64,000 bases of DNA from an uncultured Acidobacteriota bacterium (lineage in GTDB: Bacteria; Acidobacteriota; Vicinamibacteria; Vicinamibacterales; CAVVIG01), in NCBI GenBank assembly GCA_963754955.1, contig CAVWHY010000002.1:14674-78673 (forward strand). Direction: 5' to 3'. Under the pieces are notes generated by a model. That model saw only the letters and a list, made by a program, of their open reading frames with translations, did not search any database and was not told the DNA's origin. Made by a program: the position numbers and the translations under genes. Positions 537 through 64,000 of the stretch are shown piece by piece. Every line of letters starts with the position of its first letter. The first letter of the stretch is position 1.

Positions 537-608
537 GGTTCACGGTTCAGGGTTCAGGGTCAGGTTCGCCGTTTGAACCCTGAACGTTGAACCCTGAACC
601 TCTGAACC
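537..608 (+). repeat. Heptamer-periodic imperfect hairpin (unit GGTTCAG x4-5, loop GCCGTTT, complementary CTGAACC-type units)
   Basis: Read directly: ggttcac ggttcag ggttcag ggtcag gttc / gccgttt / gaac cctgaac gttgaac cctgaac ctctgaac. It fills the whole rpsJ-rplC spacer. Confidence 0.85.
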
Positions 609-621
609 GCGAGATCACTTT

Positions 622-1314
622 ATGGTTACAGGCATCATCGGCAGGAAAGTCGGCATGACGCAGGTGTTCGACGCCGACGGGACGGTGCACCCGGCCACGG
701 TCATCAAGGCCGGGCCGTGCGTCGTCGTGCAGGCGAAGAACAAGCAGAGGGACGGCTACGAGGCGGTGCAGCTGGGCCTTGTCGAAGAGCGCCCGGCGAA
801 AGTCGGCAAGGCGATGGCCGGGCACTACAAGAAGGCCAACGTGCCGCCGACGCGCGTGCGCCGCGAAGTGGCGCTGGCGCCGGCCGCGAAGGCCGACGAC
901 GCCGCCGTCAAGGCGGGCGATCAGGTGCTCGTCTCGATGTTCGCCGACGGCGAGCGCGTGGACATCATCGGCACCGGCCGCGGCAAGGGCTTCCAGGGCG
1001 TCGTCAAGCGTCACCACTTCGCCGGCGGCGCTGCGACGCACGGATCGATGTTCCACCGCGCCCCCGGTTCGATCGGCGCGTCGTCGTTTCCCTCCCGCGT
1101 GGTCAAGGGGATGCGCGCGGCCGGCCGCATGGGCGGCGGGCGCGTCACGATTCACAACCTGAAAGTCGTGCGCGTGGACGCGGAGAATCACCTGCTGCTC
1201 GTCGAAGGCGGCATTCCGGGCGCACCCGAGAGCTACGTGATCGTGCGCAAGGCGGTGACGGCCAAGCGCCTCAAGGTGGCGCAGGTCGAGAAGCCGAAAA
1301 AGGGCAAGAAGTAG
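622..1314 (+). CDS. rplC: 50S ribosomal protein L3
   Basis: ORF 622-1314, [32 protein letters not shown] is L3. Confidence 0.97.
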
Positions 1315-1315
1315 G

Positions 1316-1381
1316 GGCTCGTGGCTCGTGACTCGTGGCTCGGACGTTTCGAGCCACCAGCCACCAGCCGCCAGCCACGAG
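1316..1381 (+). repeat. Heptamer-periodic imperfect hairpin (GGCTCGT x4, loop GACGTTTC, CAGCCAC x4)
   Basis: ggctcgt ggctcgt gactcgt ggctcg / gacgtttc / gagccac cagccac cagccgc cagccac gag. C:C mismatches recur every 7 nt. It fills the rplC-rplD spacer. Confidence 0.85.
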
Positions 1382-2298: not shown

Positions 2299-3124
2299 AT
2301 GCCCATTCGCAAGTTCAATCCCACGTCGCCCGGGCGCCGGTTTCAGACCGGCCACGACTTCGACGAGATCACGACCTCGGAGCCGCACAAGCCGCTGGTC
2401 GAGACGCTCCATCAGTCGGGCGGGCGCAACAACCGCGGCAACCTCACGTCGTGGTGGCGCGGCGGCGGCCACAAGCGGATGTACCGCGTGATCGACTTCA
2501 AGCGGGACAAGCACGACATCCCGGCGAAGGTGTCGACCATCGAGTACGACCCGAACCGGTCCTCGCGCATCGCGCTCGTGACCTACGCGGACGGCGAGAA
2601 GCGCTACATCCTGCAGCCGAGCGGTCTGAAGGTGGGCGACACGATCGTGTCCGGCCAGAACGTGGACATCCTGCTCGGGCAACGCGCTGCCGCTGAAGAA
2701 CATCCCGCTCGGCACGCAGCTCCACAACGTCGAGCTGAAGCCCGGCAAGGGCGGGCAGATTGCGCGCAGCGCCGGATCGTCCGTGCAGCTGGTGGCCAAG
2801 GAAGGCCAGTACGCGTCGGTCAAGATGCCGTCGAGCGAGATTCGCAAGATCTTCAGCGAGTGCTACGCGACGATCGGCCAGGTCGGCAACATCGAGCACG
2901 AGAACGTCGCGATCGGCAAGGCCGGCCGCAGCCGGTGGATGGGCAAGCGCCCGCACGTCCGCGGCGTCGCCATGAACCCGGTCGACCATCCGCTGGGCGG
3001 CGGCGAAGGCAAGACGTCGGGCGGACGCCACCCCGTGTCGCCGTGGGGCCTGCCGACCAAGGGCTACAAGACGCGCAACCGCAAGACCACCGATCAATAC
3101 ATCGTCACGCGGAGACAGAAGTAA
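2299..3124 (+). CDS. rplB: 50S ribosomal protein L2, frame broken by one extra base near 2677-2680
   Basis: The N-terminus (ORF from 2299) and the C-terminus ..[24 protein letters not shown].. (ORF 2783-3124) are both L2. The frames join as ..VDILLG|[25 protein letters not shown]... Length 826 = 3n+1. Confidence 0.9.
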
Positions 3125-3467
3125 TGAGCCGCTCAACCAAGAAAGGTCCGTTCGTCGATACGCCGCTCCTCGAGAAGATCGAGGTGATGAACCGCGGATC
3201 CGAGCGGAAGGTCATCAAGACGTGGTCGCGCCGGTCCACGGTGATCCCCGAGATGGTGGGACACACGCTGGCCGTGCACAACGGCAAGAAGTTCATCCCC
3301 GTGTACGTGACCGAGAACATGGTCGGCCACAAGCTGGGCGAGTTCGCGCCGACGCGGCAGTTCAAGGGTCACACGACGAAGGTGGCGGAGCGGGCGGCCC
3401 AGGCCGCGGCGGCGCCTGGCGCGCCGGGCGGCGCGGCGGCGGCAAGCCGGCCGGCGCGTCGAGCTAG
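3124..3467 (+). CDS. rpsS: 30S ribosomal protein S19, 3' end uncertain (no in-frame stop as sequenced)
   Basis: [50 protein letters not shown] is S19. The ATG overlaps the rplB stop. The nearest plausible stop, TAG 3465-3467, is in another frame (length 3n+2), which implies an indel in the GC-rich tail at about 3400-3460. Confidence 0.8.
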
Positions 3468-3480
3468 GCGGAGAGCAGCG

Positions 3481-3898
3481 ATGATACAAGCGCAGGCAAC
3501 CTCTCGATACATCCGGACCTCGGCGCAGAAGGCCGGGCTCGTGCTCGATCTCATCCGCGGCAAGGACGTCAACCGCGCGCTGGCGACGCTCGAGTTCGCG
3601 CGCAAGTCGGTGGCGGAGGACATCGCGAAGCTGCTCCGGTCGGCGATTGCGAACGCGCAGCAGAAGGACGGCTTCAGCGGCGACGTGGACCGGCTGTTCG
3701 TGTCCGCGTGCTACGCGAACCAGGGGCCGTCGCAGAAGCGCGTGCGGCCGGCGCCGATGGGCCGGGCGTTTCGCGTCCTGAAGCGCACCGCGCACCTGAC
3801 CGTGCACGTCTCGGAGCGGCCGCAGAAGGCTGTGGCCGTGGCGGCGGGCGAAACGAAAAAGCGGGCGCAGAACCCCGAAGAAAGCTGCGAAGGAGTAA
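3481..3898 (+). CDS. rplV: 50S ribosomal protein L22, one extra base near the 3' end
   Basis: [39 protein letters not shown] is L22, with GGAG 9 nt upstream. TAA 3896-3898 is reached if one base is dropped, for example in the C-run 3873-3876, giving ..AQNPKKAAKE*. Length 3n+1. Confidence 0.82.
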
Positions 3899-3900
3899 CC

Positions 3901-4590
3901 GTGGGCCAGAAGGTTCATCCGTTCGGATTCCGGCTCGGCTTCAACAAGACGTGGCGGTCGCGCTGGTACTCCGACCGCGACTACGCGAAGCTGCTGCACG
4001 AGGACCTGGCGCTGCGGTCGACGCTGAAGAAGCGCTTCGCGCACGCCGGCGTCTCGAAGATCGAGACCGAGCGCGCCGCCAACAAGCTGAAGATCGACAT
4101 CTACACCTCGCGGCCCGGGATCATCATCGGCCGCAAGGGCACCGAAGTCGACAAGCTGAAGCAGGAAATCCAGAAGCGCACCAACCGCGAGGTGTTCATC
4201 AACATCCAGGAGATCCAGAAGCCGGAGCTCGATGCCCAGCTCATCTCCGAGTCGGTGGCGATGCAGCTCGAAAAGCGCGTGGCGTTCCGGCGCGCGATGC
4301 GCAAGGCGGTCGAGTCGGCGCTGCGGTTCGGCGCCCGCGGGATCAAGGTGCGCGTGTCGGGCCGGCTGAACGGCGCGGAAATCGCGCGGTCCGAGTGGTA
4401 CCTGCACGGCCAGCTGCCGCTGCAGACGCTGCGCGCGGACATCGACTACGGGTTCGCTGAAGCCAACACGACCTACGGCCAGATCGGCATCAAGGTGTGG
4501 CTGTACAAGGGCGAGCGGCTCGTGCCGCAACGCGGGCGTGAAGAAGAGTACCGAGAGCGGGCCCCACGCCGACCGGCGGCGCGGGCCTAG
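3901..4590 (+). CDS. rpsC: 30S ribosomal protein S3
   Basis: GTG start; [39 protein letters not shown] is S3 (KH domain). 230 codons, intact. Confidence 0.95.
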
Positions 4591-4605
4591 GAGAATTGAG
4601 TATTT

Positions 4606-4703
4606 AGTCATCTGGTCATCTGGTCATCTAGTCATCGTTTGCCAATTGAGCCATTTCACAATTGAGCAACGATGACCAGATGACCAAATGACCAAATGAC
4701 CAG
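4606..4703 (+). repeat. Octamer-built hairpin element, copy 1 (4x GGTCATCT, apical CAATTG stem-loop, 4x AGATGACC)
   Basis: agtcatct ggtcatct ggtcatct agtcatcg .. caattg agccatttca caattg .. cgatgacc agatgacc aaatgacc aaatgacc ag. It ends 15 nt before the rplP ATG. Confidence 0.9.
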
Positions 4704-4718
4704 ATTCGAGATCGCATT

Positions 4719-5145
4719 ATGTTGATGCCGAAGAAGGTCAAGTTCAGGAAACAGCAGCGCGGGCGCATGCGCGGCAAGGCGTGGCGCGGCGGCGACGTGT
4801 CGTTCGGCGACTACGGGCTGAAAGCGCTCGAGCCGTGCTGGCTGACCGACCGCCAGATCGAGGCGGCGCGCGTCGCGATGACGCGGTTCGTCGCGCGCGG
4901 CGGGAAGATCTGGGTGCGCGTGTTCCCCGACAAGCCGATCACGAAGAAGCCGCAGGAAACCCGCATGGGCAAGGGCAAGGGCGCCCCCGAGCAGTGGGTG
5001 GCCGTCGTGAAGCCGGGACGGGTGCTGTTCGAGATGGAAGGCGTGAGCGAGAAGGACGCGCGCGAAGCGATGAAGCTGGCGGCCGCGAAGCTGCCGATTC
5101 TCACGAAGTTCGCGACCCGCTTCTGCGCAGGAGAGAATCCAATGA
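4719..5145 (+). CDS. rplP: 50S ribosomal protein L16, one extra base near the 3' end
   Basis: [45 protein letters not shown] is L16. As sequenced it reads through into rpmC. TGA 5143-5145 is reached after removing one base at about 5117-5125. Length 3n+1. Confidence 0.85.
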
Positions 5146-5334
5146 AGGCCGCGGAACTGCGCGCCCTGGGCGCCGACGAGCTCAACGCGAAGGTGCGCGA
5201 ACTGACCGATCAGCTGTTTCGCCTGCGCATCCAGAAGTCCATGGGACAGCTCGAGGCGCCGGCCAAAGTGAAGATCCGTGCGCCGCGACCTCGCGCGGGT
5301 CAAGACGGTGCTGCAGCAGCAGAAGGCGGGATAG
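5142..5334 (+). CDS. rpmC: 50S ribosomal protein L29, one extra base about 5280
   Basis: [37 protein letters not shown].., then after the shift ..[17 protein letters not shown] (typical L29 end). Length 193 = 3n+1. Confidence 0.85.
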
Positions 5335-5590
5335 ATGGCGACGAAATCCGAGAAAACCGGCGTGGTCGTGAGCAACAAGATGACGAAGAGCATCGTCGTC
5401 GCCGTGGAGTGGCAGGTGCGCCACGGGCTCTACGGGAAAACCGAGCGGCGGACGTCGAAGTTCATGGTCCACGACGAGGAAAATACCGCCAAAGTCGGTG
5501 ACATCGTCGAGATCGTCGAAACGCAGGCCGCTCAGCCGCAGCAAACGCTGGGCGCTCAAGCGCGTGGTGCGGCAGGCGGCGGAGGTCTAA
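5335..5590 (+). CDS. rpsQ: 30S ribosomal protein S17, one extra base about 5525
   Basis: [48 protein letters not shown], then after the shift [21 protein letters not shown]. Length 256 = 3n+1. Confidence 0.88.
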
Positions 5591-5592
5591 CC

Positions 5593-5961
5593 ATGATTCA
5601 GATGCGATCGATCCTCGACGTCGCCGACAACTCGGGCGCCCGCAAGATCGCGGTGATCAACCCGATCGGCGGGTCGACGGGCCGCTACGCGCGCCTCGGC
5701 GACATCGTCACCGCGTCGGTCAAGGAAGCGACGCCCGAGGGCAACGTCAAGAAGGGCGCCGTCGTGAAGGCGGTCATCGTGCGCACCGTCAAGGAGCAGC
5801 GCCGGCGCGACGGCAGCTACATCCGCTTCGATCGCAACGCGGCCGTGCTGATCAACGATCAGAACGAGCCCATCGGCACCCGCGTGTTCGGTCCCGTCGC
5901 CCGCGAACTGCGCGAGCGCCGGTTCATGAAGATCATTTCGCTCGCGCCGGAGGTCCTGTAG
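5593..5961 (+). CDS. rplN: 50S ribosomal protein L14
   Basis: [41 protein letters not shown] is L14. 123 codons. Confidence 0.96.
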
Positions 5962-5965
5962 GGAC

Positions 5966-6298
5966 ATGTCCAGCTTAGCAACGCCGATTCGCAAGAACGA
6001 CAACGTGCTGGTGATTACCGGCAAGGATCGCGGCAAGCGCGGGCGCGTGCTGCGCGTGCTGCCCGACAAGAACCGGTTGATCATCGAGGGCGTGAACCTG
6101 ATCAAGCGCCACACGAAGCCGAACCCCGGCAAGAACGTCAAGGGCGGCATCGTCGAGCGCGAGGCATCGCTGCACGCGTCGAACGTGCAGCTGGTGTGCC
6201 CGGAGTGCGGAGCGCAGACGCGCGTCGGCCGCAAGATTCTCGGCGACGGCCGGAAGGTGCGTATCTGCCGCAAGTGCGAGGGAGTGGTGGACAAATGA
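5966..6298 (+). CDS. rplX: 50S ribosomal protein L24 (with C-terminal CxxC..CxxC zinc ribbon)
   Basis: ORF 5966-6298, [22 protein letters not shown] (KOW) plus CPECG..CRKCEG. Confidence 0.95.
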
Positions 6299-6843: not shown

Positions 6844-6885
6844 AGGTCACAGGGCAAAAGGCACACGGCAGAGGGCAAAGGGTTA
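6844..6885 (+). repeat. Single-arm heptamer array (AGGGCAA-type x6) running into the rpsN start codon
   Basis: aggtcac agggcaa aaggcac acggcag agggcaa agggtta|tg. Confidence 0.8.
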
Positions 6886-7074: not shown

Positions 7075-7170
7075 AGTCATCTGATCATCTGGTCATCTCG
7101 TCTTCGTCGATCAATTGAGCACTTGCAATTGAGCAACGATGACCAGACGACCAGATGACCAAACGACCAG
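7075..7170 (+). repeat. Octamer-built hairpin element, copy 2
   Basis: agtcatct gatcatct ggtcatct cgtcttcg .. caattg agcacttg caattg .. cgatgacc agacgacc agatgacc aaacgacc ag. It ends 19 nt before the rpsH ATG. Confidence 0.9.
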
Positions 7171-7189
7171 ATGAAGTGAGATAGCAGAT

Positions 7190-9289: not shown

Positions 9290-9302
9290 TGATGGTGAAT
9301 GT

Positions 9303-9402
9303 GGTCATCTCATCATCTGGTCATCTCGTCATCGTCTCGATCAATTGAGACATTGGACAGTTGATCGACGATGACCAGATGACGAGATGACCACATGACC
9401 AG
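9303..9402 (+). repeat. Octamer-built hairpin element, copy 3
   Basis: ggtcatct catcatct ggtcatct cgtcatcg .. caattg agacattgga cagttg .. cgatgacc agatgacg agatgacc acatgacc ag. It ends 16 nt before the rplO ATG. Confidence 0.9.
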
Positions 9403-9418
9403 ATTCGAGAGAGCATTT

Positions 9419-13088: not shown

Positions 13089-13130
13089 GGGACAAGGGCA
13101 GAGCGCAAAGGGCAAAGGGCAAAGAGCATA
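13089..13130 (+). repeat. Single-arm heptamer array (GGGCAAA-type x6) running into the rpsM start codon
   Basis: gggacaa gggcaga gcgcaaa gggcaaa gggcaaa gagcata|tg. Confidence 0.8.
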
Positions 13131-13504
13131 TGGCACGAATTGCTGGTGTAGACCTTCCCCGGACGAAGCGGGTCGAGATCGGTCTCACGTACATCTTCGG
13201 GATCGGGCGGATGCGCTCGAACGGCATCCTCAAGGACGCGGGGGTCAGCCCCGATGTGCGCGTGAAGGATCTGTCGGAAGACGATGTCCGCAAGATCAGC
13301 CGGGTGATCGAAGAGCAGGGCGGCGTCGAAGGCGACCTCCGCAAGGAAGTGTCGATGAACATCAAGCGGCTGATGGAAATCGGCTGCTACCGCGGGGCGC
13401 GCCACCGGCGCAGCCTGCCCGTCCGGGGGCAGCGGACACGCACGAACGCGCGGACCCGGAAAGGGCCGCGCAAGGGCGCCATCGCGAAGAAGAAGGTCAT
13501 TTAG
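13130..13504 (+). CDS. rpsM: 30S ribosomal protein S13
   Basis: [48 protein letters not shown]. Confidence 0.97.
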
Positions 13505-14795: not shown

Positions 14796-15776
14796 ATGCT
14801 CTGGAAGGGTTTTCAACGACCGAAGCGGCTGGAGTTCGAGCGCGAGACGCTCACCGATCGGTTCGGACGCTTTTACGCGCAGCCGTTCGAGCGGGGATTC
14901 GGCACGACGATCGGCAATGCGGTACGGCGGGTTCTGTTGTCGTCGATTGAAGGCGCGGCCATCACGGCCGTCAAGATTGACGGGGTGCTCCACGAGTTCT
15001 CGCCCATTCCGGGCGTGGTGGAAGACGCGACGGACATCATCCTGAACCTCAAGCAGATTCCGCTGAAGCTGCACGTCGATCACGCCAAGACACTGGTGAT
15101 CAAGGTGGACAAGGCCGGCGAGGTGCGCGGCCGCGACATCCAGGCGGACGGCGACGTCGAGATTCTCGAACCGGACGCGCATATCGCGACCGTGTCCGAA
15201 GGCGGCAAGCTCCACATGGAGATGCGCATGAAGCGCGGCCGCGGCTACGTCTCGGCCGACAAGAACTTCGACGAAGACCTCGGCATCGGCTGGATCCCGG
15301 TGGACTCGGTCCACTCGCCGGTCAAGAAGGTCAACTACCTGGTCGAGGCGGCGCGCCTTGGACAGACGACCGACTACGACAAGCTCACGATCGACGTCTG
15401 GACGAACGGGTCAATCAACGCGCGCGACGCGGTGTCGCTCGCCGCGAAGCTGATCCGCGATCACCTGAACATCTTCATCAACCTCGAGGAAGGCTCGGGC
15501 GATCAGGCGGAGGCGCTGGCCGACCAGCCGCGCTCCGGCGTCAGCAACGAGAACCTCGACAAGAGCGTCGAGGAACTCGAGCTCTCCGTCCGTTCCTACA
15601 ACTGCCTCAAGAACGCGAACATCAGGACCATTCGCGAACTGGTGCAGAAGACTGAAGCCGAAATGCTCAAGACGAAGAACTTCGGCCGGAAGAGCCTGAA
15701 CGAGATCAAGGAGATCCTGCACACCATGGGTCTCAGCCTCGGGATGCGCGTGGATATGAGCGGAGCGCAGGACTAG
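14796..15776 (+). CDS. rpoA: DNA-directed RNA polymerase subunit alpha
   Basis: 326 aa, ..[27 protein letters not shown]..; C-terminal domain ..[22 protein letters not shown]. Confidence 0.97.
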
Positions 15777-15843
15777 CAAAGGGCATAGGGCAGAGGGCAG
15801 AAGGCAGAGGGAAATTTGCCCTTTGCCTTTTGCCCTTTGCCCT
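15776..15843 (+). repeat. Heptamer-periodic hairpin (GGGCAGA x4, loop AAAT, TTGCCCT x4)
   Basis: gcaaa gggcata gggcaga gggcaga aggcaga ggg / aaat / ttgccct ttgcctt ttgccct ttgccct. It fills the rpoA-rplQ spacer. Confidence 0.88.
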
Positions 15844-25362: not shown

Positions 25363-25364
25363 TT

Positions 25365-25399
25365 CAGTGAGCGGTGATCAGTGATCAGTGATCGGTACG
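25365..25399 (+). repeat. Single-arm heptamer array (CAGTGAT-type x5) in the marR/pdaD divergent spacer
   Basis: cagtgag cggtgat cagtgat cagtgat cggtacg. Same unit as the hairpin inside nadB. Confidence 0.8.
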
Positions 25400-30138: not shown

Positions 30139-31371
30139 ATGGCTAACTTCGCATATTCGGGACGGACGCGCGGCGGAGAGACGGTCAGCGGCGAGCGGAT
30201 CGCCGACACCATGGACGCGGCTGTGGCCGCGCTGCGCCGCGACCAGATCCTGGTCACGCGGATCACGCCGACCAAGGCCAGGGCCGAGGAGAAGGACAAG
30301 GAAAAGGCCAAGGGCGGCGGCGGCAAGACCACCAAGAGGGTGGCCGCCAAGAACCTGGCCGTGTTCACCCGCCAGTTCTCGGTGATGATCGACGCCGGGC
30401 TGCCCCTCGTGCAGTGCCTCGACATCCTGGGCAACCAGGAAGAGGACAAGAATTTCGCCGAGGTCATCCTGCAGACGCGGTCGAGCGTCGAAGGCGGCGC
30501 GGCGCTTGCCGACGCGATGCGGAAATTCCCGAACTCGTTCGACCCGCTCTTCACGAACATGATCGCCGCGGGCGAGGCGGGCGGTATTCTGGATACGATT
30601 CTGAAGCGGCTGGCGGTCTACATCGAGAAGAACGTCAAGCTCAAGGGTCAGGTCAAGTCGGCGATGATCTACCCGATCGCCGTGATCGTCATCGCAGGCG
30701 CGGTGGTGGGCGTCATTCTCTGGAAGGTGATCCCGACATTCGCGGCGATGTTCGCCGGCCTTGGCGCCCAGCTGCCGCTGCCGACCCGCATCGTCATCGC
30801 GCTCAGCGACAACCTGGTGAAGTACGGGCTGTTCGCCATTCCCGTTGTCGGCATCGGGGGATACGCGTTCACGCAGTACTACAAGACGGACGGCGGCCGC
30901 CACGCGGTCGACGCGGTCGCGCTGAAGATGCCGGTGCTCGGCATGCTCCTCCGCAAGATCGCGGTGGCCAGGTTCTGCCGGACGCTCTCGACGCTCATCT
31001 CCTCGGGCGTGCCCATCCTCGATGGCCTGGACATCACGGCGCGCACGTCGGGCAACGCGATCGTCGAGGACGCCATTCTCGAGACGCGGAAGAGCATCGA
31101 GCGCGGCGAGACGATTTCCGCGCCGCTCAAGGAAACCAACGTGTTCCCGTCGATGGTGACCCAGATGATCAGCGTCGGCGAGGCCACGGGCGCGCTCGAC
31201 GCGATGCTCGCGAAGATCGCCGACTTCTACGAAGAGGAAGTCGACGTGGCGGTCGCGGGTATGCTGACGCTGCTCGAACCGATCATGATCGCGTTTCTCG
31301 GTACCGTGGTCGGCGGCATCGTCATCGCGATGTACATGCCGATCTTCGACATGATCAGCAAGCTGACGTAG
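30139..31371 (+). CDS. pilC: Type IV pilus platform protein PilC (GspF family)
   Basis: 410 aa, two T2SS-F repeats, ..FTRQFSVMIDAGLPLVQCLDIL.. and ..FCRTLSTLISSGVPILDGL.. Confidence 0.94.
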   Translation: MANFAYSGRTRGGETVSGERIADTMDAAVAALRRDQILVTRITPTKARAEEKDKEKAKGGGGKTTKRVAAKNLAVFTRQFSVMIDAGLPLVQCLDILGNQEEDKNFAEVILQTRSSVEGGAALADAMRKFPNSFDPLFTNMIAAGEAGGILDTILKRLAVYIEKNVKLKGQVKSAMIYPIAVIVIAGAVVGVILWKVIPTFAAMFAGLGAQLPLPTRIVIALSDNLVKYGLFAIPVVGIGGYAFTQYYKTDGGRHAVDAVALKMPVLGMLLRKIAVARFCRTLSTLISSGVPILDGLDITARTSGNAIVEDAILETRKSIERGETISAPLKETNVFPSMVTQMISVGEATGALDAMLAKIADFYEEEVDVAVAGMLTLLEPIMIAFLGTVVGGIVIAMYMPIFDMISKLT

Positions 31372-40052: not shown

Positions 40053-41515
40053 GATCGATGAACCGGAAAGAATTTCTCGGCGTGGTGACACGGGGCGCCG
40101 TGGCGTTCGGGGCGACGGCGCTCCCATGGGCGCGGCTCCGCGCAGAGTCGCCGGGCCCTGTCATGGCGACGCTCAGCGCTTACATGGCGGCTGCCGCGGC
40201 GCGGACGCTCCCTGCCGGAGGTCGTGGAGGTGACCAAGCACCACATCCTGGATACGTTCGCCGCGATGATCTCCGGATCGGAACTGCCGCCCGGCCGGGC
40301 GGCCATCGCGCTCGCGCGTGCAGTTGCGGGCGACACCACGGGAACCGTTGCGGGCTCACGCGTCCTCTGCGGTCCGCTCGACGCGGCGCTCGCCAACGGC
40401 GTGCATGGCGCACGCCGACGAAACGGACGATTCGCACGGCCCCTCGCAATCGCATCCGGGTTCGGCTGTCGTGCCGGCGGCGCTGGCGGCCGCCGAGCAG
40501 TTCGGCGCCGACGGCGCCGCGCTTCATCCGCGCCGTCGCGCTGGGCTACGACATCGGCCCGCGGGTGACGATGGCGCTCGGCGGCGTGAGGTTCCGGACC
40601 GAGAGCCACCGCAGCACGCACAGCATCGCCGGCACGTTCGGCGCCTCGGCGGCTGCGGGATGTGTCGCGCGCCTGAACGCGCAGCAGATGCGCTGGCTGC
40701 TCGACTACGCCGCCCAGCAGGCTTCCGGCTTCGCGGCGTGGGAACGCGACACGGATCACATCGAGAAAGGGTTCGTGTTCGCCGGGATGCCGGCCCGCAA
40801 CGGCGTCACGGCCGCTCTTGTCGTCAGCCTGAAGCTGGAGCGGCGTCGACGACGTGTTCTCGGGCGAAGACAACTTCTTCGAGGCGATGTCGCCGGCAGG
40901 CCAATCCCGCGACGCTCGTCGAGCGGCTGGGCGAGCGGTACGAGGTGACGCGGACCGACATCAAGAAATGGACCGTGGGTTCCCCTATCCAGGCGCCGCT
41001 CGACGCGCTGGACAACCTTCTGCGCCGTCGTCCGCTCGACGCCGATCAGGTGCAGCGCGTCGTCGTCCGCCTTGCGTCCAGCGCCGGCGCGGTCGTGAAC
41101 AACCGCGAGATGCCGGACATCTGCCTGCAGCACATGATCGCGGTGATGCTCCTCGACAAGACCGCGTCGTTCGCGGCCGCGCACGACAAGCCGCGGATGC
41201 AGGCTCCCGCGGTTCTCAAGCAGCGCGCGAAGGTCGAACTGGTGCTGGACGAGGAACTCGAGCGCCTGATGCCGCAGCGGCAGGCGATCGTCGAGGTCAC
41301 GTTGACCGACGGCATCGCGGCTCACCGAGCGCGTCGAAGCCGTGCGGGGCACCGCGGCGAACCCGATGAGCCGTGAGGAAGTCGTCCGCAAGTGCCGCGA
41401 CCTGACCGCGCCCGTCCTGGGCCCGGCCGTGGCCGATCGGCTGATCCAGACGGTGCTGACGCTCGAGCAGATCACCGACATCCGCTCGCTCCGGCCGCTC
41501 CTCCAACGCGAGTAG
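40049..41515 (+). pseudogene. MmgE/PrpD-family protein with Tat-like signal; six +1 frame shifts as sequenced
   Basis: Segments: MNRKEFLGVVTRGAVAFGATALPWA.. / EVTKHHILDTFAAMISGS.. / MAHADETDDSHGPSQSHPGSAVVPAAL.. / IRAVALGYDIGPRV..STHSIAGTFGA.. / ..DIKKWTVGSPIQAPLDAL.. / ..RGTAANPMSREEVVRKCRDL... The frame path is 2>0>1>2>0>1>2. Confidence 0.75.
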
Positions 41516-41516
41516 C

Positions 41517-41566
41517 GCAGGCCTTCAGGTCTGCTGGTCCGGCAGGCCTGAAGGCCTGCACTACTT
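41517..41566 (+). repeat. REP-like twin hairpin (TTCA/TGAA loops), family B copy 1
   Basis: gcaggcc-ttca-ggtctgc, then GTCCGGCAGGCCTGAAGGCCTGCACTACTT. The 30-mer recurs at 56541-56570 with 1 mismatch. Confidence 0.75.
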
Positions 41567-41578
41567 CTGTCGCCCCCG

Positions 41579-41620
41579 CGACTGCCGACTGCTGACTGTC
41601 GACTGCCGACTGGTTACTGT
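41579..41620 (+). repeat. Single-arm heptamer array (CGACTGC-type x6)
   Basis: cgactgc cgactgc tgactgt cgactgc cgactgg ttactgt. It ends 17 nt before GTG 41638. Confidence 0.8.
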
Positions 41621-53406: not shown

Positions 53407-55046
53407 GTGCATCTCTCCCCGGATTTCATCGTCATCGGCAGCGGCATCGCCGGGCTGCGGGCGGCGATTGCGCTCGCGCCCGTCGGCCGCGTCCTGATTC
53501 TGACCAAGGCCGAACCGACCGAGAGCAATACCGGCTACGCGCAGGGCGGCATCGCCGTCGCGCTCGGCGACGACGACAGCCCCGCGCTCCACGCGGCGGA
53601 CACGGTGAAGGCCGGCGACGCGCTCTGCGACGAAGAGGCCGTGCGGGTGCTGGTCGAGCAGGGACCGCCGCTACGTCACGGAGCTCGTCGAGTGGGGCAC
53701 GCGCTTCGACCGCGACGCCGAGCGGGCGCCTGTCGCGAGGACGGGAAGCCGCCCACAGCGTCCGGCGCGTGCTGCACGCAGGCGACACGACGGGACGGGA
53801 GATCGCGCCGCGTCCTGTGGCGTCGTGTCAGCGCCCTGCCGACGGTCGAAACAGCGAACCACGCGCTGGTGACCGGAGCTGCTCGTCGAGGACGGGCGCG
53901 TGGCCGGCGTCAGGTTCTTCGATCAGCTCGGGTTTCCGCGGGACGCGCGGGCGCGCGCCACGCTGCTGGCGACCGGCGGGGCCGGACACGTCTTCAAGGA
54001 AACCACGAATCCGCCCGTGGCGACCGGCGACGGCGTGGCGCTCGCGTTCCACGCCGGGGCCCGCGTCGCCGATCTCGAGTTCGTCCAGTTTCATCCCACC
54101 GCGCTGAATGTCCGCGGCGCTCCGCGGTTCCTGATTTCAGAAGCGCTGCGCGGCGACGGCGCCCGGCTGCTCAACGGCCGGGGCGACGCGTTCATGGGCG
54201 GCTATCATCCCGACGGCGATCTCGCGCCGCGCGACGTCGTCGCCCGGAGCATCGTTCGCGAGATGGAGCGGACCGGCGGGCCTGTGTTCCTCTCGCTGTC
54301 GCATCTCGATCCCGACTACGTCGTCCATCGCTTCCCGACGATTGCCGACATGTGCCGCCAGATCAATCTCGACCTGGCGACGCGATCCGATTCCCGTCGG
54401 ACCCGCGGCGCACTACATCATGGGAGGCGTCGAAACGGACCACTGGGGTCGGACCTCGATTCCGGGCCTGTTCGCCGCCGGCGAGGTGGCCTGCACGGGC
54501 GTTCACGGCGCCAATCGCCTGGCGAGCAACTCGCTGCTCGAAGGACTCGTGTTCGGCGCGCGCGCAGCGACGGCGATGCAGCAGGCTGACGGTGGCCAGT
54601 GGTCAGTGGCCGGTGATCAGTGGGTGCCGGCGCCACCGATCACTGATCACCGATCACCGATCACCGATGACGGATCACCGATCGCTGCCAACCGGCGTTC
54701 GTCGAGCGACCACCGTTCGCTGACGACCAGCGAAGTCCGCGACCTGATGTGGAAGTCGGTCGGCCTGTTCCGGACGGGCGAGGGTCTGCGCGATGCCGGC
54801 GCGAAACTCGAAGCCGCGTACCGCGCACATCGTCGCGCGCTCGACGACGCGCGCGCTGACGATGCGGATGCCTGGAAGCAATTCAACCTCGTGACCGTGG
54901 CGCGACTGATCGCGCGCGCCGCGCTGCGTCGGCAGGAGAGCCGCGGCGCCCACTACCGGCAGGATTTTCCGGAGAGGGACGATGTACACTGGAAAATCCA
55001 CCTGGTAGATCACATCGACGCATATGGCGAAAAACGACAAGACTGA
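53407..55046 (+). pseudogene. nadB: L-aspartate oxidase, about five +1 shifts, plus an in-frame repeat insertion
   Basis: FIVIGSGIAGLRAA..YAQGGIA.. / ..LLATGGAG.VF..TTNP..ATGDGVALA..AGA...DLEFVQFHPT.. / ..[60 protein letters not shown]. Confidence 0.85.
54590..54687 (+). repeat. Heptamer-periodic hairpin (CAGTGRY x5, loop CCGGCG, TCACCGA x7) inside the nadB coding sequence
   Basis: cggtggc cagtggt cagtggc cggtgat cagtggg tg / ccggcg / ccaccga tcactga tcaccga tcaccga tcaccga tgacgga tcaccga tcgctg. Translated as ..[32 protein letters not shown].. Confidence 0.85.
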
Positions 55047-62288: not shown

Positions 62289-62521
62289 GCTATGGTTCGT
62301 TCAGCAGAGCCGATTGGGGCAAGTAACCACAACGAATAGGGCATCAGATTGCCCTTGCCCCAATACATAGGCCTTGCTACACTGGCGACCGCTTGGCGGC
62401 TCGGGGCCGCCTTCCGACTTTCGGAAGGCGAAGTAGCCGCAGAATCGGTCGCGTTGTCATTCTGTCACCCAGCCAGATTTCCGCACATTGAGGCATCCGT
62501 GTCGATGCCGTGGTGTCCACC

Positions 62522-64000
62522 ATGCGTCTCGAACGTCTAGAGATCAACGGGTTCAAATCGTTCTCCGATCGCTCGGAGCTGGCCTTCGACAAGGGCGTGA
62601 CCGCCATCGTCGGCCCGAACGGGTGCGGCAAGAGCAACGTCGCCGACGCCATCACGTGGGTGATGGGCGAGCAGAGCGCCAAGAGCCTGCGCGGCGAGCG
62701 CATGGAAGACGTGCTCTTCAGCGGCAGCGATGCGCGCAAACCGACGGCGTCGGCCGAAGTCCGGCTGCGTTTCAGCGGCGTGCTGAAAAGCCTCACGGGG
62801 CCCGCGCTGCCAGGCCTCGACGATGCCGCCCCGCACGAGAACGGACACGCCGGCAACGGTCACCACGGGAACGGCCATAACGGCAATGGCCACAACGGCA
62901 ACGGGCATCACGGCAATGGGGCGAACGGCAACGGCCACGAACCGGTTCCCTTCGTCGCGACGCCGATCGCGCGCGAGGATGCGGTGCTCACGCGCGCGGA
63001 GGCCGAGGAGCTGATTCAGTCGGTGGCGCGCGAAGTGGAAGTGACGCGTCGTCTGTACCGATCGGGCGAGAGCGAGTACCTGATCGACGGCCAGGTCTGC
63101 CGCCTGCGCGACGTGCACGAACTGCTGATGGATACGGGCCTCGGCGCGAAGGCCTATGCCATCATCGAGCAAGGCAAGATTGGCCTCATTCTGAGCTCGA
63201 GGCCGACCGATCGTCGCCAGCTGATCGAGGAAGCGGCCGGCGTGACCCGCTACAAGTCCCGGCGTCGCTCGGCGGAGCTCAAGCTCGAAGCGGCGCGTCA
63301 GAACCTGACGCGCATTGACGACATCGTGTTCGAGGTGGAAAAGCAGCGCGGGACGCTGAAGCGGCAGGCCGGCAAGGCGAAGCGGTACCAGAAGCTTCGC
63401 GACGAACTGCGGCGCTGCGAAAAGGTCCTCCTGGCGCGCAAGTATCGGCAGCTCGCCGAGACGATCGCGACGGCGCGCGCGCAGCTCTCGGAGGCCCGGG
63501 TGCGCGAGTCGGCCGCGACCGCGCAGGTCGCCGAAGTCGAATCCAACCTGAGCCGGCTGCGCATCGAGTTGGTCGAAGCCGAGTCGCATTCCACCTCCAC
63601 GCGCGAGGCGGCCCATGCGTGCGAGCTGACCATCAACCGCCAGCAGCAGCAGATCGCGTTCGACGACGAGCAGGCCCGGACGCTCGACGCGCGCGTCGCG
63701 GCCGTCGTGGCCGAGGCGGCAGCGCTCGAGGCGCGCCGCGAGCCGGCTCGCGCCGCACTCGAGGCGCGGCGGGTGGCCGCGATCGACGCCAACGCCGAAC
63801 GCGACCGCGCGGCGGCGATGCTCGCGGCCGGCTCCGACGCCTACGATTCGGCGCATCGCGAGATCGAAGGGCTCGAAGCGGACGTTGAAGCGGCGCGCAG
63901 CGAGGTGTTCTCCGCGATCAACTCCGCAACCGCCCTGCGACACGCGCTCGAACACGCGGCCGCCACGCGGGACCGAGTCGGCGAGACGCTCTCGAAGCTC
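62522..64000 (+). CDS. smc: Chromosome partition protein Smc, N-terminal 493 codons (3' end outside window)
   Basis: MRLERLEINGFKSFSDRSELAFDKGVTAIVGPNGCGKSNVADAI.WV.GEQSAK.LRG; then coiled coil. Open to the window end, so absent from the ORF track. Confidence 0.92.
   Translation, partial: MRLERLEINGFKSFSDRSELAFDKGVTAIVGPNGCGKSNVADAITWVMGEQSAKSLRGERMEDVLFSGSDARKPTASAEVRLRFSGVLKSLTGPALPGLDDAAPHENGHAGNGHHGNGHNGNGHNGNGHHGNGANGNGHEPVPFVATPIAREDAVLTRAEAEELIQSVAREVEVTRRLYRSGESEYLIDGQVCRLRDVHELLMDTGLGAKAYAIIEQGKIGLILSSRPTDRRQLIEEAAGVTRYKSRRRSAELKLEAARQNLTRIDDIVFEVEKQRGTLKRQAGKAKRYQKLRDELRRCEKVLLARKYRQLAETIATARAQLSEARVRESAATAQVAEVESNLSRLRIELVEAESHSTSTREAAHACELTINRQQQQIAFDDEQARTLDARVAAVVAEAAALEARREPARAALEARRVAAIDANAERDRAAAMLAAGSDAYDSAHREIEGLEADVEAARSEVFSAINSATALRHALEHAAATRDRVGETLSKL

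Follow-up and report, generated by a model that had tools for sequence, protein, structure and literature searches.

Heptanucleotide repeat arrays, mostly paired into hairpins, within ribosomal-protein operons of Vicinamibacterales

The 64,000-nt DNA stretch analyzed here (contig CAVWHY010000002.1 of assembly GCA_963754955.1, hereafter the window) originates from a soil acidobacterium of the order Vicinamibacterales (Acidobacteriota subdivision 6), and its overall GC content is 66%. The first 16.5 kb comprise, on the plus strand, the S10-spc-alpha ribosomal-protein cluster, which begins at the end of tuf, continues with rpsJ and rplC and reaches as far as rpoA and rplQ. Spacers of this cluster are occupied by arrays of tandemly repeated 7-nt or 8-nt units, most often arranged as two complementary arms able to form a hairpin. 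In our analyses an array was defined as a tandem repeat of at least three copies found with Tandem Repeats Finder (TRF), and arms were paired by an inverted-repeat search. Dinucleotide shuffles of the window (100) served as the chance control, and RNA folds were compared with 200 shuffles. Genes were called with a codon-usage model trained on the window; the calls are approximate, above all at the frame breaks listed below, and Pfam identifications refer to the 10 of about 65 window proteins that were scanned.

The hairpin of the rpsJ/rplC spacer (537-608, plus strand) is built of four GGTTCAS units, a 7-nt loop and five CTGAACC-type units. TRF recognized it as two period-7 repeats, with 4.1 copies of GGTTCAG (537-564) and 5.0 copies of TTGAACC (573-608), and the inverted-repeat search delimited arms of 89% complementarity (534-560 and 577-603). 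Its predicted RNA fold (-44.9 kcal/mol; z = -6.1) was equalled by none of the 200 shuffles. The array begins at 537, 1 nt past the TAG stop codon of rpsJ (533-535), and ends at 608, 13 nt before the ATG of rplC (622).

The hairpin of the rplC/rplD spacer (1316-1381, plus strand) consists of four GGCTCGT units facing four CCAGCCA units. TRF reported 3.9 copies of GGCTCGT (1316-1342) and 3.9 copies of AGCCACC (1352-1378); the arms (1316-1342 and 1350-1376) are 81% complementary and 7 nt apart. The predicted fold has an energy of -40.5 kcal/mol (z = -4.3), matched by 1 of 200 shuffles, and contains three C:C mismatches spaced by 7 nt (positions 9, 16 and 23 of the folded piece) and one A:C. Here the array starts at 1316, after the rplC stop codon (TAG, 1312-1314), and ends at 1381, 8 nt before the ATG of rplD (1390). 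Both elements had been presented in a preliminary description as inverted pairs of four to five tandem 7-mers per arm, placed 1 nt after a stop codon and 13 or 8 nt before the next ATG, with C:C mismatches recurring each 7 nt in the second; TRF and the inverted-repeat search reproduced this plan and the coordinates, and periodic mismatches turned out to be general among the hairpins of related bacteria. The loops, described there as 7-8 nt, are predicted to be 7 nt in 537-608 and 3 nt in 1316-1381. The arms are mostly made of 7-mers, as described, apart from one left-arm unit of 537-608, GGTCAG, which has 6 nt and may owe this length to an indel error, since the assembly contains frame breaks.

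The frame breaks were seen in rplB (2299-3124, near 2680-2706), rpsQ (5335-5590, near 5525), rpmC (5142-5334, at its 3' end) and a gene for an FAD-binding protein (53407-54589, near 53880), and neighboring genes are fused into single open reading frames (ORFs) at 2299-4590 and 4719-5501. The splitting of essential genes looks like indel error of a long-read-type assembly and not like true pseudogenes. Single-base indel errors are therefore likely, and units of odd length should not be over-read.

In total, 11 arrays (7 hairpins and 4 one-armed arrays) were distinguished in the window, 8 of them within the ribosomal-protein cluster. Three plus-strand hairpins are composed of 8-mers: those of the rpsC/rplP (4602-4705), rpsN/rpsH (7076-7174) and rpmD/rplO (9297-9406) spacers. 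The first of them, recognized by TRF, inverted-repeat search and folding, combines GTCATCTG and CAGATGAC units around the center CAATTGAGC..CAATTGAGC; its 47-nt arms are 83% complementary and its fold reaches -58.2 kcal/mol (z = -9.4). The other two (-47.8 kcal/mol, z = -3.8, and -62.5 kcal/mol, z = -6.2, respectively) were assigned to the same 8-mer family by TRF, inverted-repeat search and alignment, and the three are homologous, with 78% column identity over about 125 nt, flanks and pre-ATG stretch included. The hairpin of the rpoA/rplQ spacer (15776-15843, plus strand; TRF and inverted-repeat search; L17 identified by Pfam) begins at the rpoA stop codon and pairs five GGGCAGA units with four TTTGCCC units around the center AAATTT (-53.1 kcal/mol; z = -8.2). 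Two one-armed arrays of the cluster, detected by TRF on the plus strand, are unstructured as RNA: AGGGCAA (4.6 copies, purine-rich) in the rplE/rpsN spacer (6844-6882; fold z = +0.2), which ends 2 nt before the ATG of the S14 gene, and AAGGGCA (5 copies) in the rpmJ/rpsM spacer (13094-13135; fold z = +1.2), which ends 1 nt before the ATG of the S13 gene, both proteins being identified by Pfam. Outside the cluster, TRF and Pfam placed 4.3 copies of TCAGTGA in a divergent spacer (25364-25393, no strand assigned), where they begin 1 nt ahead of the start codon of a MarR-family gene on the minus strand, and 4.9 copies of CGACTGC upstream of a VKOR-thioredoxin gene (41579-41620, plus strand). The last hairpin (54590-54683, plus strand; TRF, inverted-repeat search and Pfam), with 4.6 copies of GTGGYCA against 7.1 copies of CACCGAT (-54.1 kcal/mol; z = -2.6), lies directly 3' of the stop codon of the FAD-binding gene (54587-54589), proS being located 340 nt downstream.

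Chance does not account for these arrays: period-7 arrays number 13 in the window against 0.68 in the dinucleotide shuffles (at most 4 in 100), and period-8 arrays 6 against 0.40. Array-bearing spacers make up 8 of 27 in the ribosomal-protein cluster and 2 of 38 elsewhere in the window, a count from which the hairpin at 54590 was missed owing to a doubtful gene call. Some units recur within the window, GTCATCTG in three hairpins and GGGCARA in three arrays. The GGGCARA arrays (6844-6882, 13094-13135 and 15776-15811) have at least four GGG runs on the sense strand and, by analogy with the G-rich heptamers of Xanthomonas and Nostoc, could form G-quadruplexes.

The comparison set comprised 160 related loci (L001-L160), i.e., 80 loci from species-level genomes and, independent of them, 80 metagenome contigs. 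Identity of the rplC product is 64-88% with its homologues in the 80 genomes (labeled nearly all as Vicinamibacterales, Vicinamibacteria, Luteitalea or Acidobacteriota) and up to 96% with those of soil metagenome contigs. The window and the genome loci amount to 903 kb, with 15% of bases non-coding and a coverage of 12-64 kb per genome. Their non-coding arrays are dominated by period 7 (368 arrays), followed by periods 8 (69), 9 (19) and 6 (6), and the metagenome contigs gave the same ranking (202, 34, 6 and 1, respectively). The coding DNA of the window and genome loci holds 31 period-7 arrays, and the usual coding periods of 3, 6 and 9 are seen there. Of the co-directional spacers of at least 40 nt, 288 of 539 bear an array. 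The median length is 97 nt for spacers that contain an array and 7 nt for those that lack one.

Hairpins, counted in relatives when at least 14 Watson-Crick pairs form within an array-bearing co-directional spacer, occur in 282 of the 420 distinct spacers of this type in the combined set; the rest, about one third, are one-armed. The median stem has 26 Watson-Crick pairs (first set), starts 5 nt past the stop codon and ends 17 nt before the start codon. Arms are mostly 4-5 units long and about 85-90% paired, and the copy numbers of the two arms are only weakly coupled (r = 0.23; mean difference of 1.04, permutation giving 1.19). A long hairpin of the window's 8-mer family in a Luteitalea metagenome-assembled genome (L015:10561-10805; 245-nt spacer, some 13 GGTCATCT-type units facing about 10 complementary ones) shows that 4-5 units per arm are not a hard limit. 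The hairpins sit inside operons and not at intrinsic terminators: a scan for U-tract terminators and promoters found none at the window hairpins, and the terminator total of the window (13) is close to that of the shuffles (12.1).

In orthologous spacers of the relatives the arrays recur with varied units. The architecture is found across SPAdes, MEGAHIT and long-read assemblies and shows no base difference between two independent metagenomes (L128 and L129); the arrays are no assembly artefact. A separate element of about 100 nt ('...CAGCGCCTGCGGC...GGGGGTGGGGCCCC...AAAAA'), absent from the window, adjoins heptamer arrays within spacers of many relatives (L003:928-1056; L005:5758-6000, two copies; L031:5821-6000; L038:5843-6000; L054:3807-3976; L064:2042-2192; L069:6682-6810) and is also present in the rpsJ/rplC or rplC/rplD spacers of L099, L118, L134 and L139. 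It had no Rfam match at the gathering score and may be an undescribed small RNA or mobile element.

Orthologous junctions are either filled with an array or reduced to a spacer of 2-10 nt, often only 'CC'. Arrays were found at every S10/spc operon junction in 20-45% of genomes, with three exceptions: rpsS/rplV (0 of 73), rplP/rpmC (0 of 64) and rplX/rplE (1 of 64). The constant placement between stop codon and next ATG, initially taken together with the periodicity as pointing to a shared mechanism or structural selection, needs no particular mechanism, because the spacers of array-free relatives are only 2-10 nt long and an array-bearing spacer consists of the array and a ribosome-binding site. 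A link with the stop codon itself was tried and rejected (TAG precedes 58% of hairpin spacers, but array-free spacers of 15 nt or more have it in 54% of cases too). At least one array is present in 62 of the 80 genomes; the remaining 18 have none, and since for some of them 15-20 spacers were examined (e.g., L018, 0 of 15), array-proneness looks like a whole-genome property.

The units are extremely diverse. Among 437 arrays 203 unit sequences were distinguished, 41 of them at the rpsJ/rplC junction alone, with a mean GC content of 54% compared with 65% for the surrounding DNA set. The common plan with differing sequences, noticed first in two spacers, is thus general. The units are not strictly locus-specific, as the earlier wording had it: an identical unit occurs in two different spacers in 10.3% of pairs within a genome and in 1.3% of pairs between genomes (about 8-fold difference). 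Within the 12-64 kb covered per genome, each genome has several units. A unit structure of conserved core and variable linker was also considered and rejected, variable positions being no more contiguous than expected by chance.

Comparison of close relatives shows how the units change. In L128 and L129 (99.9% identical) all 9 array spacers are unchanged, while in L094 and L007 (97.7% identical; one of the pair is a long-read assembly) 3 of 8 are heavily rebuilt. The 8-mer GGGGACTN in one of the latter pair corresponds to the 7-mers GGGACTA / AGCCCCN in the other (L094:4501-4589 and 4926-5000; L007:5504-5582 and 5919-6000), which reflects either a concerted one-base change per unit or a systematic long-read homopolymer error. 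In relatives with 90-96% L3 identity the rpsJ/rplC spacer keeps its length of 86 nt, with GGTTCAG replaced by GGCTRGA in both arms (equal length with this unit in L081 and L083), whereas GGTTCAS is shared by the window and L034, whose rplC product is only 76% identical, so that unit type does not follow phylogeny. At the rplC/rplD junction, the hairpin of L082 (91% relative) retains CGAGCCA units and its arms pair better than those of the window; the CCAGCCA variant is represented by one unit in L082 and three in the window, and would therefore have spread inside the right arm of the window's hairpin. Array turnover is fast, yet not hypermutable.

Junctions that are filled in one species and empty in another, presence or absence as a trait of the whole genome, units shared within a genome and the scatter of unit types over the phylogeny (GGTTCAS in the window and L034) would also be expected of mobile palindromes resembling miniature inverted-repeat transposable elements (MITEs) or REPINs (doublets of repetitive extragenic palindromes, REPs), inserted by an enzyme encoded elsewhere in the genome. 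The homology of the three 8-mer hairpins of the window, which covers about 125 nt including center, flanks and pre-ATG stretch, fits such an origin too. We nevertheless regard it as unlikely. Hairpins having the same unit in one genome have similar center sequences in 0 of 34 pairs, the three 8-mer hairpins of the window being the exception, which argues against cassette transposition; simple copying and pasting of cassettes within genomes was rejected on this ground. About one third of the arrays are one-armed, 203 units among 437 arrays do not resemble a sequence family, and units change in place while the spacer stays 86 nt long. Compared with the terminal inverted repeats of MITEs, the inverted repeat here takes up the entire element, and no target-site duplication was visible by eye when filled junctions were compared, across species, with empty 'TAG CC ATG' ones. 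REPs and REPINs, as well as enterobacterial repetitive intergenic consensus (ERIC) sequences, are multi-copy families conserved in sequence, with a cognate RAYT transposase in the case of REPINs. The present arrays are like them in being palindromic intergenic elements of about 70-130 nt, often within operon transcripts; the arms of those elements are not internally periodic, and centers and units are unconserved here. The many near-identical palindrome copies typical of REPs and REPINs were not found, at most three related copies (also the largest family in the DNA examined) occurring in the 64 kb, a small sample.

The alternative offered in the preliminary description alongside a shared generating mechanism was structural selection. 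In this interpretation the hairpins would be selected RNA elements of ribosomal-protein mRNA, acting as RNase III sites, as 3' stabilizers or as devices that loop out the spacer for re-initiation at the next gene. Their stems, with folding energies of -40 to -62 kcal/mol and z-scores between -4 and -9, are highly stable, arm length varies within narrow limits, placement is consistent (a median of 5 nt past the stop and 17 nt before the start), and a stem of 26 Watson-Crick pairs is long enough for RNase III. The enrichment of arrays in the ribosomal-protein cluster points the same way, as does a precedent in Clostridium, where intercistronic stem-loops are reported to set operon stoichiometry (PMC4423207).

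However, a palindrome is the same on both strands, and strand-specific forces are therefore visible only in mismatches, loops and unpaired arrays. Tests of arm order (purine-, G- or T-rich arm) were discarded for this reason, since these properties are identical on the opposite strand and give no evidence of strand-specific selection. A selected RNA helix tolerates G:U in excess over A:C. Among isolated stem mismatches (two Watson-Crick pairs on either side, in alignments scoring G:T and A:C equally), the sense strand has 167 A:C and 128 G:U in the combined set and 249 and 243, respectively, in the first set, so the mismatch spectrum lends no support to selection on RNA structure. Moreover, the palindrome continues across the apex in 52 of 217 hairpins (24%), against an expectation that we estimate at about 2%; an RNA loop cannot pair at its apex, and selection on RNA cannot maintain such complementarity. 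The signature of selected structured RNA (G:U tolerated, A:C avoided, apex unconstrained) was thus not found among the hairpins of the window and its relatives. Mismatches recur at 7 nt (414) and 14 nt (261), against about 200 and 140 at adjacent distances, and are often of the same type. The pairing register is also degenerate, the arms being paired at 0.84 in register and at 0.80 and 0.79 when slipped by one unit. From these patterns each arm is shown to be homogenized internally and the pairing to be strand-symmetric; all four favor complementarity made at the DNA level.

Further points stand against selected RNA elements: the unit sequence is free, the hairpin is conserved at no junction (20-45%), 18 of 80 genomes have none, and ribosomal proteins are needed in equal amounts, so that differential stabilization would have no obvious use. 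Rfam gave no match at the gathering score in the window and 9 related loci, and a permissive search of the window returned sub-threshold microRNA (miRNA)-precursor models alone, i.e., generic hairpins. Taken together, we consider selected RNA elements possible, if rather doubtful.

Some features nevertheless hint at the mRNA level. One-armed arrays are purine-rich on the sense strand (98 vs. 29), and so are hairpin loops (91 vs. 26), array-free spacers being similar; this sense-strand purine bias of unpaired parts may be counted in favor of selected RNA. Shine-Dalgarno motifs are weak after hairpin spacers (window and L001-L160), with GGAG in 9% of cases and mostly GAGA or AGGA, while for spacers of at most 10 nt the downstream gene has GGAG in 51%, embedded in the upstream gene. 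The weakness of these motifs has been counted for selected RNA as well. Both features fit a filter acting at the mRNA level on which arrays are tolerated; a transcription-linked mutation bias could also be at work.

The purine-rich one-armed arrays 6844-6882 and 13094-13135, which end 1-2 nt before start codons, recall another idea, put forward for the TAACTGA arrays of Beggiatoaceae (PMC4679880), namely that heptamer arrays are platforms for a single-strand-binding protein with a footprint of about 7 nt, such as a cold-shock-domain protein, ribosomal protein S1 or a CsrA-like protein. TAACTGA arrays have the same placement, including upstream of the L3 gene, and a report cited in PMC4679880 is said there to describe binding of one CspB protein per heptamer. 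As two thirds of the present arrays are sequestered in stems, and as binding would have to be non-specific given 203 units with unclustered variable positions, we find this function very unlikely.

With about even confidence, we read the arrays as STRR-like repeats (after the short tandemly repeated repetitive sequences of cyanobacteria) of 7 nt, less often 8 nt, which are mutational in origin, are tolerated in operon mRNA and are a genome-level trait of many Vicinamibacterales; the view that they constitute no sequence-specific functional RNA belongs to this reading and shares its even standing. A generating mechanism common to all arrays, preferred over the spread of one sequence from the outset, fits the unit diversity, the dominance of period 7 and the generality of periodic mismatches. 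From the observed periodicity, turnover, within-arm homogenization and strand symmetry we infer the following order of events. Replication slippage would enlarge an array and homogenize it within an arm. An inverted duplication, or a template switch between arms of the type known from Escherichia coli quasipalindromes, would then convert the array into a palindrome and refresh it, after which the two arms would evolve as separately homogenized arrays. Units of one genome may stay similar through short-patch recombination involving arrays about 30 nt long. The palindromic array would fold into a stem of about 26 bp, which hides the repeat and holds the upstream stop codon close to the downstream ribosome-binding site and start, and for that reason it would be tolerated in polycistronic mRNA; one-armed arrays would persist in operons when purine-rich on the sense strand.

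Several points weigh against this reading. Slippage, inverted duplication and inter-array conversion are all deduced from patterns, and the model does not account for the preference for period 7. The mismatch test would say little about a role of the RNA if the stems are over-stable, single mismatches then being neutral, and the narrow arm length and 85-90% pairing despite fast turnover could reflect selection on structure. Array density in the window is about eight-fold higher in the ribosomal-protein cluster than elsewhere, which mutation alone would not predict unless high transcription were the driver. The weak Shine-Dalgarno motifs after hairpins (GGAG 9% vs. 51%) hint that the hairpins may have a role in translational coupling. 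Finally, the three 8-mer hairpins of the window have centers and flanks in common, as copied cassettes would.

A more far-reaching explanation combines some of these points. A lineage-specific active system would build and refresh periodic palindromes of free sequence and fixed geometry (about 4-5 x 7 nt per arm), a trans-acting factor being present in the array-rich genomes (62 of 80) and absent from the array-free ones, and the hairpins would have taken over translational coupling, replacing Shine-Dalgarno-led initiation by holding stop and start together. We think this quite unlikely. The mutational reading and its rivals are not mutually exclusive.

Repeats of this kind have been described in other bacteria. 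Cyanobacterial STRRs, which were reportedly first described in 1990, had been named as the nearest analogue, and the comparison is apt. The arrays belong with the heptanucleotide arrays of the STRR and Xanthomonas GGGAATC type, as they are tandem 7-mers in at least three copies, strongly intergenic, over-represented and arranged in convergent inverted pairs near the upstream ORF. Such arrays were thought to be unrecorded in high-GC non-cyanobacterial genomes, but Xanthomonas campestris and X. axonopodis (65% GC) have about 186 GGGAATC arrays, of which 70-75 sets form convergent inverted pairs (Rehm et al., 2015; PMC4692102). Four units, placed about 28 nt past the upstream ORF, are the usual form; 89-93% are intergenic, the flanking genes being mostly co-directional, and close species differ in array length and sequence (PMC4692102). 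These inverted arrays are the closest precedent: high GC, a predominance of four units, intergenic and co-directional location near the upstream ORF end, inverted pairing and interspecies variation are all shared. By contrast, the arrays across the Xanthomonas genome are essentially limited to a single G-rich unit, which has been studied for its G-quadruplex formation, whereas here 203 units with a mean GC content of 54% occur, only the GGGCARA arrays could form quadruplexes and period-8 relatives exist; the bias toward ribosomal-protein operons has not been reported for Xanthomonas.

The STRRs of Calothrix, Nostoc and Anabaena are tandem heptamers located in intergenic regions, with several unit families per genome, according to work cited in PMC4692102. 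In Nostoc PCC 7120, GGGGAYT arrays also lie inside operons, e.g., between pecE and pecF, and few are paired inverted arrays. The arrays described here are likewise tandem, intergenic and of several units per genome; STRRs differ in their low-GC hosts and in reaching 26 units, and the few inverted pairs of Nostoc contrast with a share of about two thirds in the present set. In marine Beggiatoaceae, some cyanobacteria and Bacteroidetes, TAACTGA arrays of 2-6 units are intergenic, forward and situated just upstream of start codons; they are over-represented ahead of translation genes and within ribosomal-protein operons, one of their sites being upstream of L3 (MacGregor, 2015; PMC4679880). The one-armed arrays 6844-6882 and 13094-13135 resemble them in placement; TAACTGA is, however, a single conserved unit with one inverted repeat in 170 sets, while hairpins are the majority form here. 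The template switching that corrects E. coli quasipalindromes (PMC7202029), in which one arm templates the other, yields strand-symmetric 'compensatory' changes, as needed for the mismatch spectrum found here; it is a mutational mechanism and not an element class, and would act on these arrays as such.

Among long repeat classes, 7-mers are most often over-represented in several phyla (PMC4060949), in a survey covering 1,424 bacterial chromosomes according to PMC4692102. Polymerase slippage has been proposed (PMC4692102; PMC4060949), and the heptamer preference has been tentatively tied to the footprint of DNA polymerase (PMC4692102). The four acidobacterial genera then available scored normal (PMC4060949), and we found no literature report of heptamer or tandem repeat arrays in Vicinamibacteria (Vicinamibacter, Luteitalea) or other Acidobacteriota. 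What is distinctive here is the combination of free unit sequence with fixed architecture, hairpins as the majority form and the 8-mer relatives.

Other repeats were noted in the window. A near-perfect palindrome with 27-nt arms (GCAGGCCTTCAGG / CCTGAAGGCCTGC) is located at 41511-41565, downstream of a PrpD-like gene, and non-periodic GGCCTGAAGGCC-type hairpins resembling it occupy the rpsJ/rplC spacer in L002, L004 and L046; this type seems to form another class of intergenic hairpin, the second one here, and resembles REPs. Two repeats are in-frame and coding: a 15-nt unit (AACGGCCACCACGGC, 6.6 copies) at 62840-62938, Asn/Gly/His-rich, in an ORF starting at 62510, and seven copies of CCAAGG at 30272-30313 in the gene 30139-31371.

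The arrays thus represent a kind of repeat that is already known yet unexplained, most likely of mutational origin and with a possible role in operon translation. How bacterial heptanucleotide arrays arise and what they do has remained unexplained since STRRs were described, and their spacers are traps for annotation, assembly and RNA-motif discovery, where they score as miRNA-like hairpins. Vicinamibacterales are a good comparative system for these questions, with hundreds of species-level genomes, arrays gained, lost and unit-switched at the same junctions, and some relatives free of arrays. Mutational origin can be weighed there against RNA function through the mismatch spectrum and apex palindromy, a genome-level factor can be sought by phylogenetic profiling, and it becomes tractable how essential, tightly coupled ribosomal-protein operons bear insertions of 70-130 nt.

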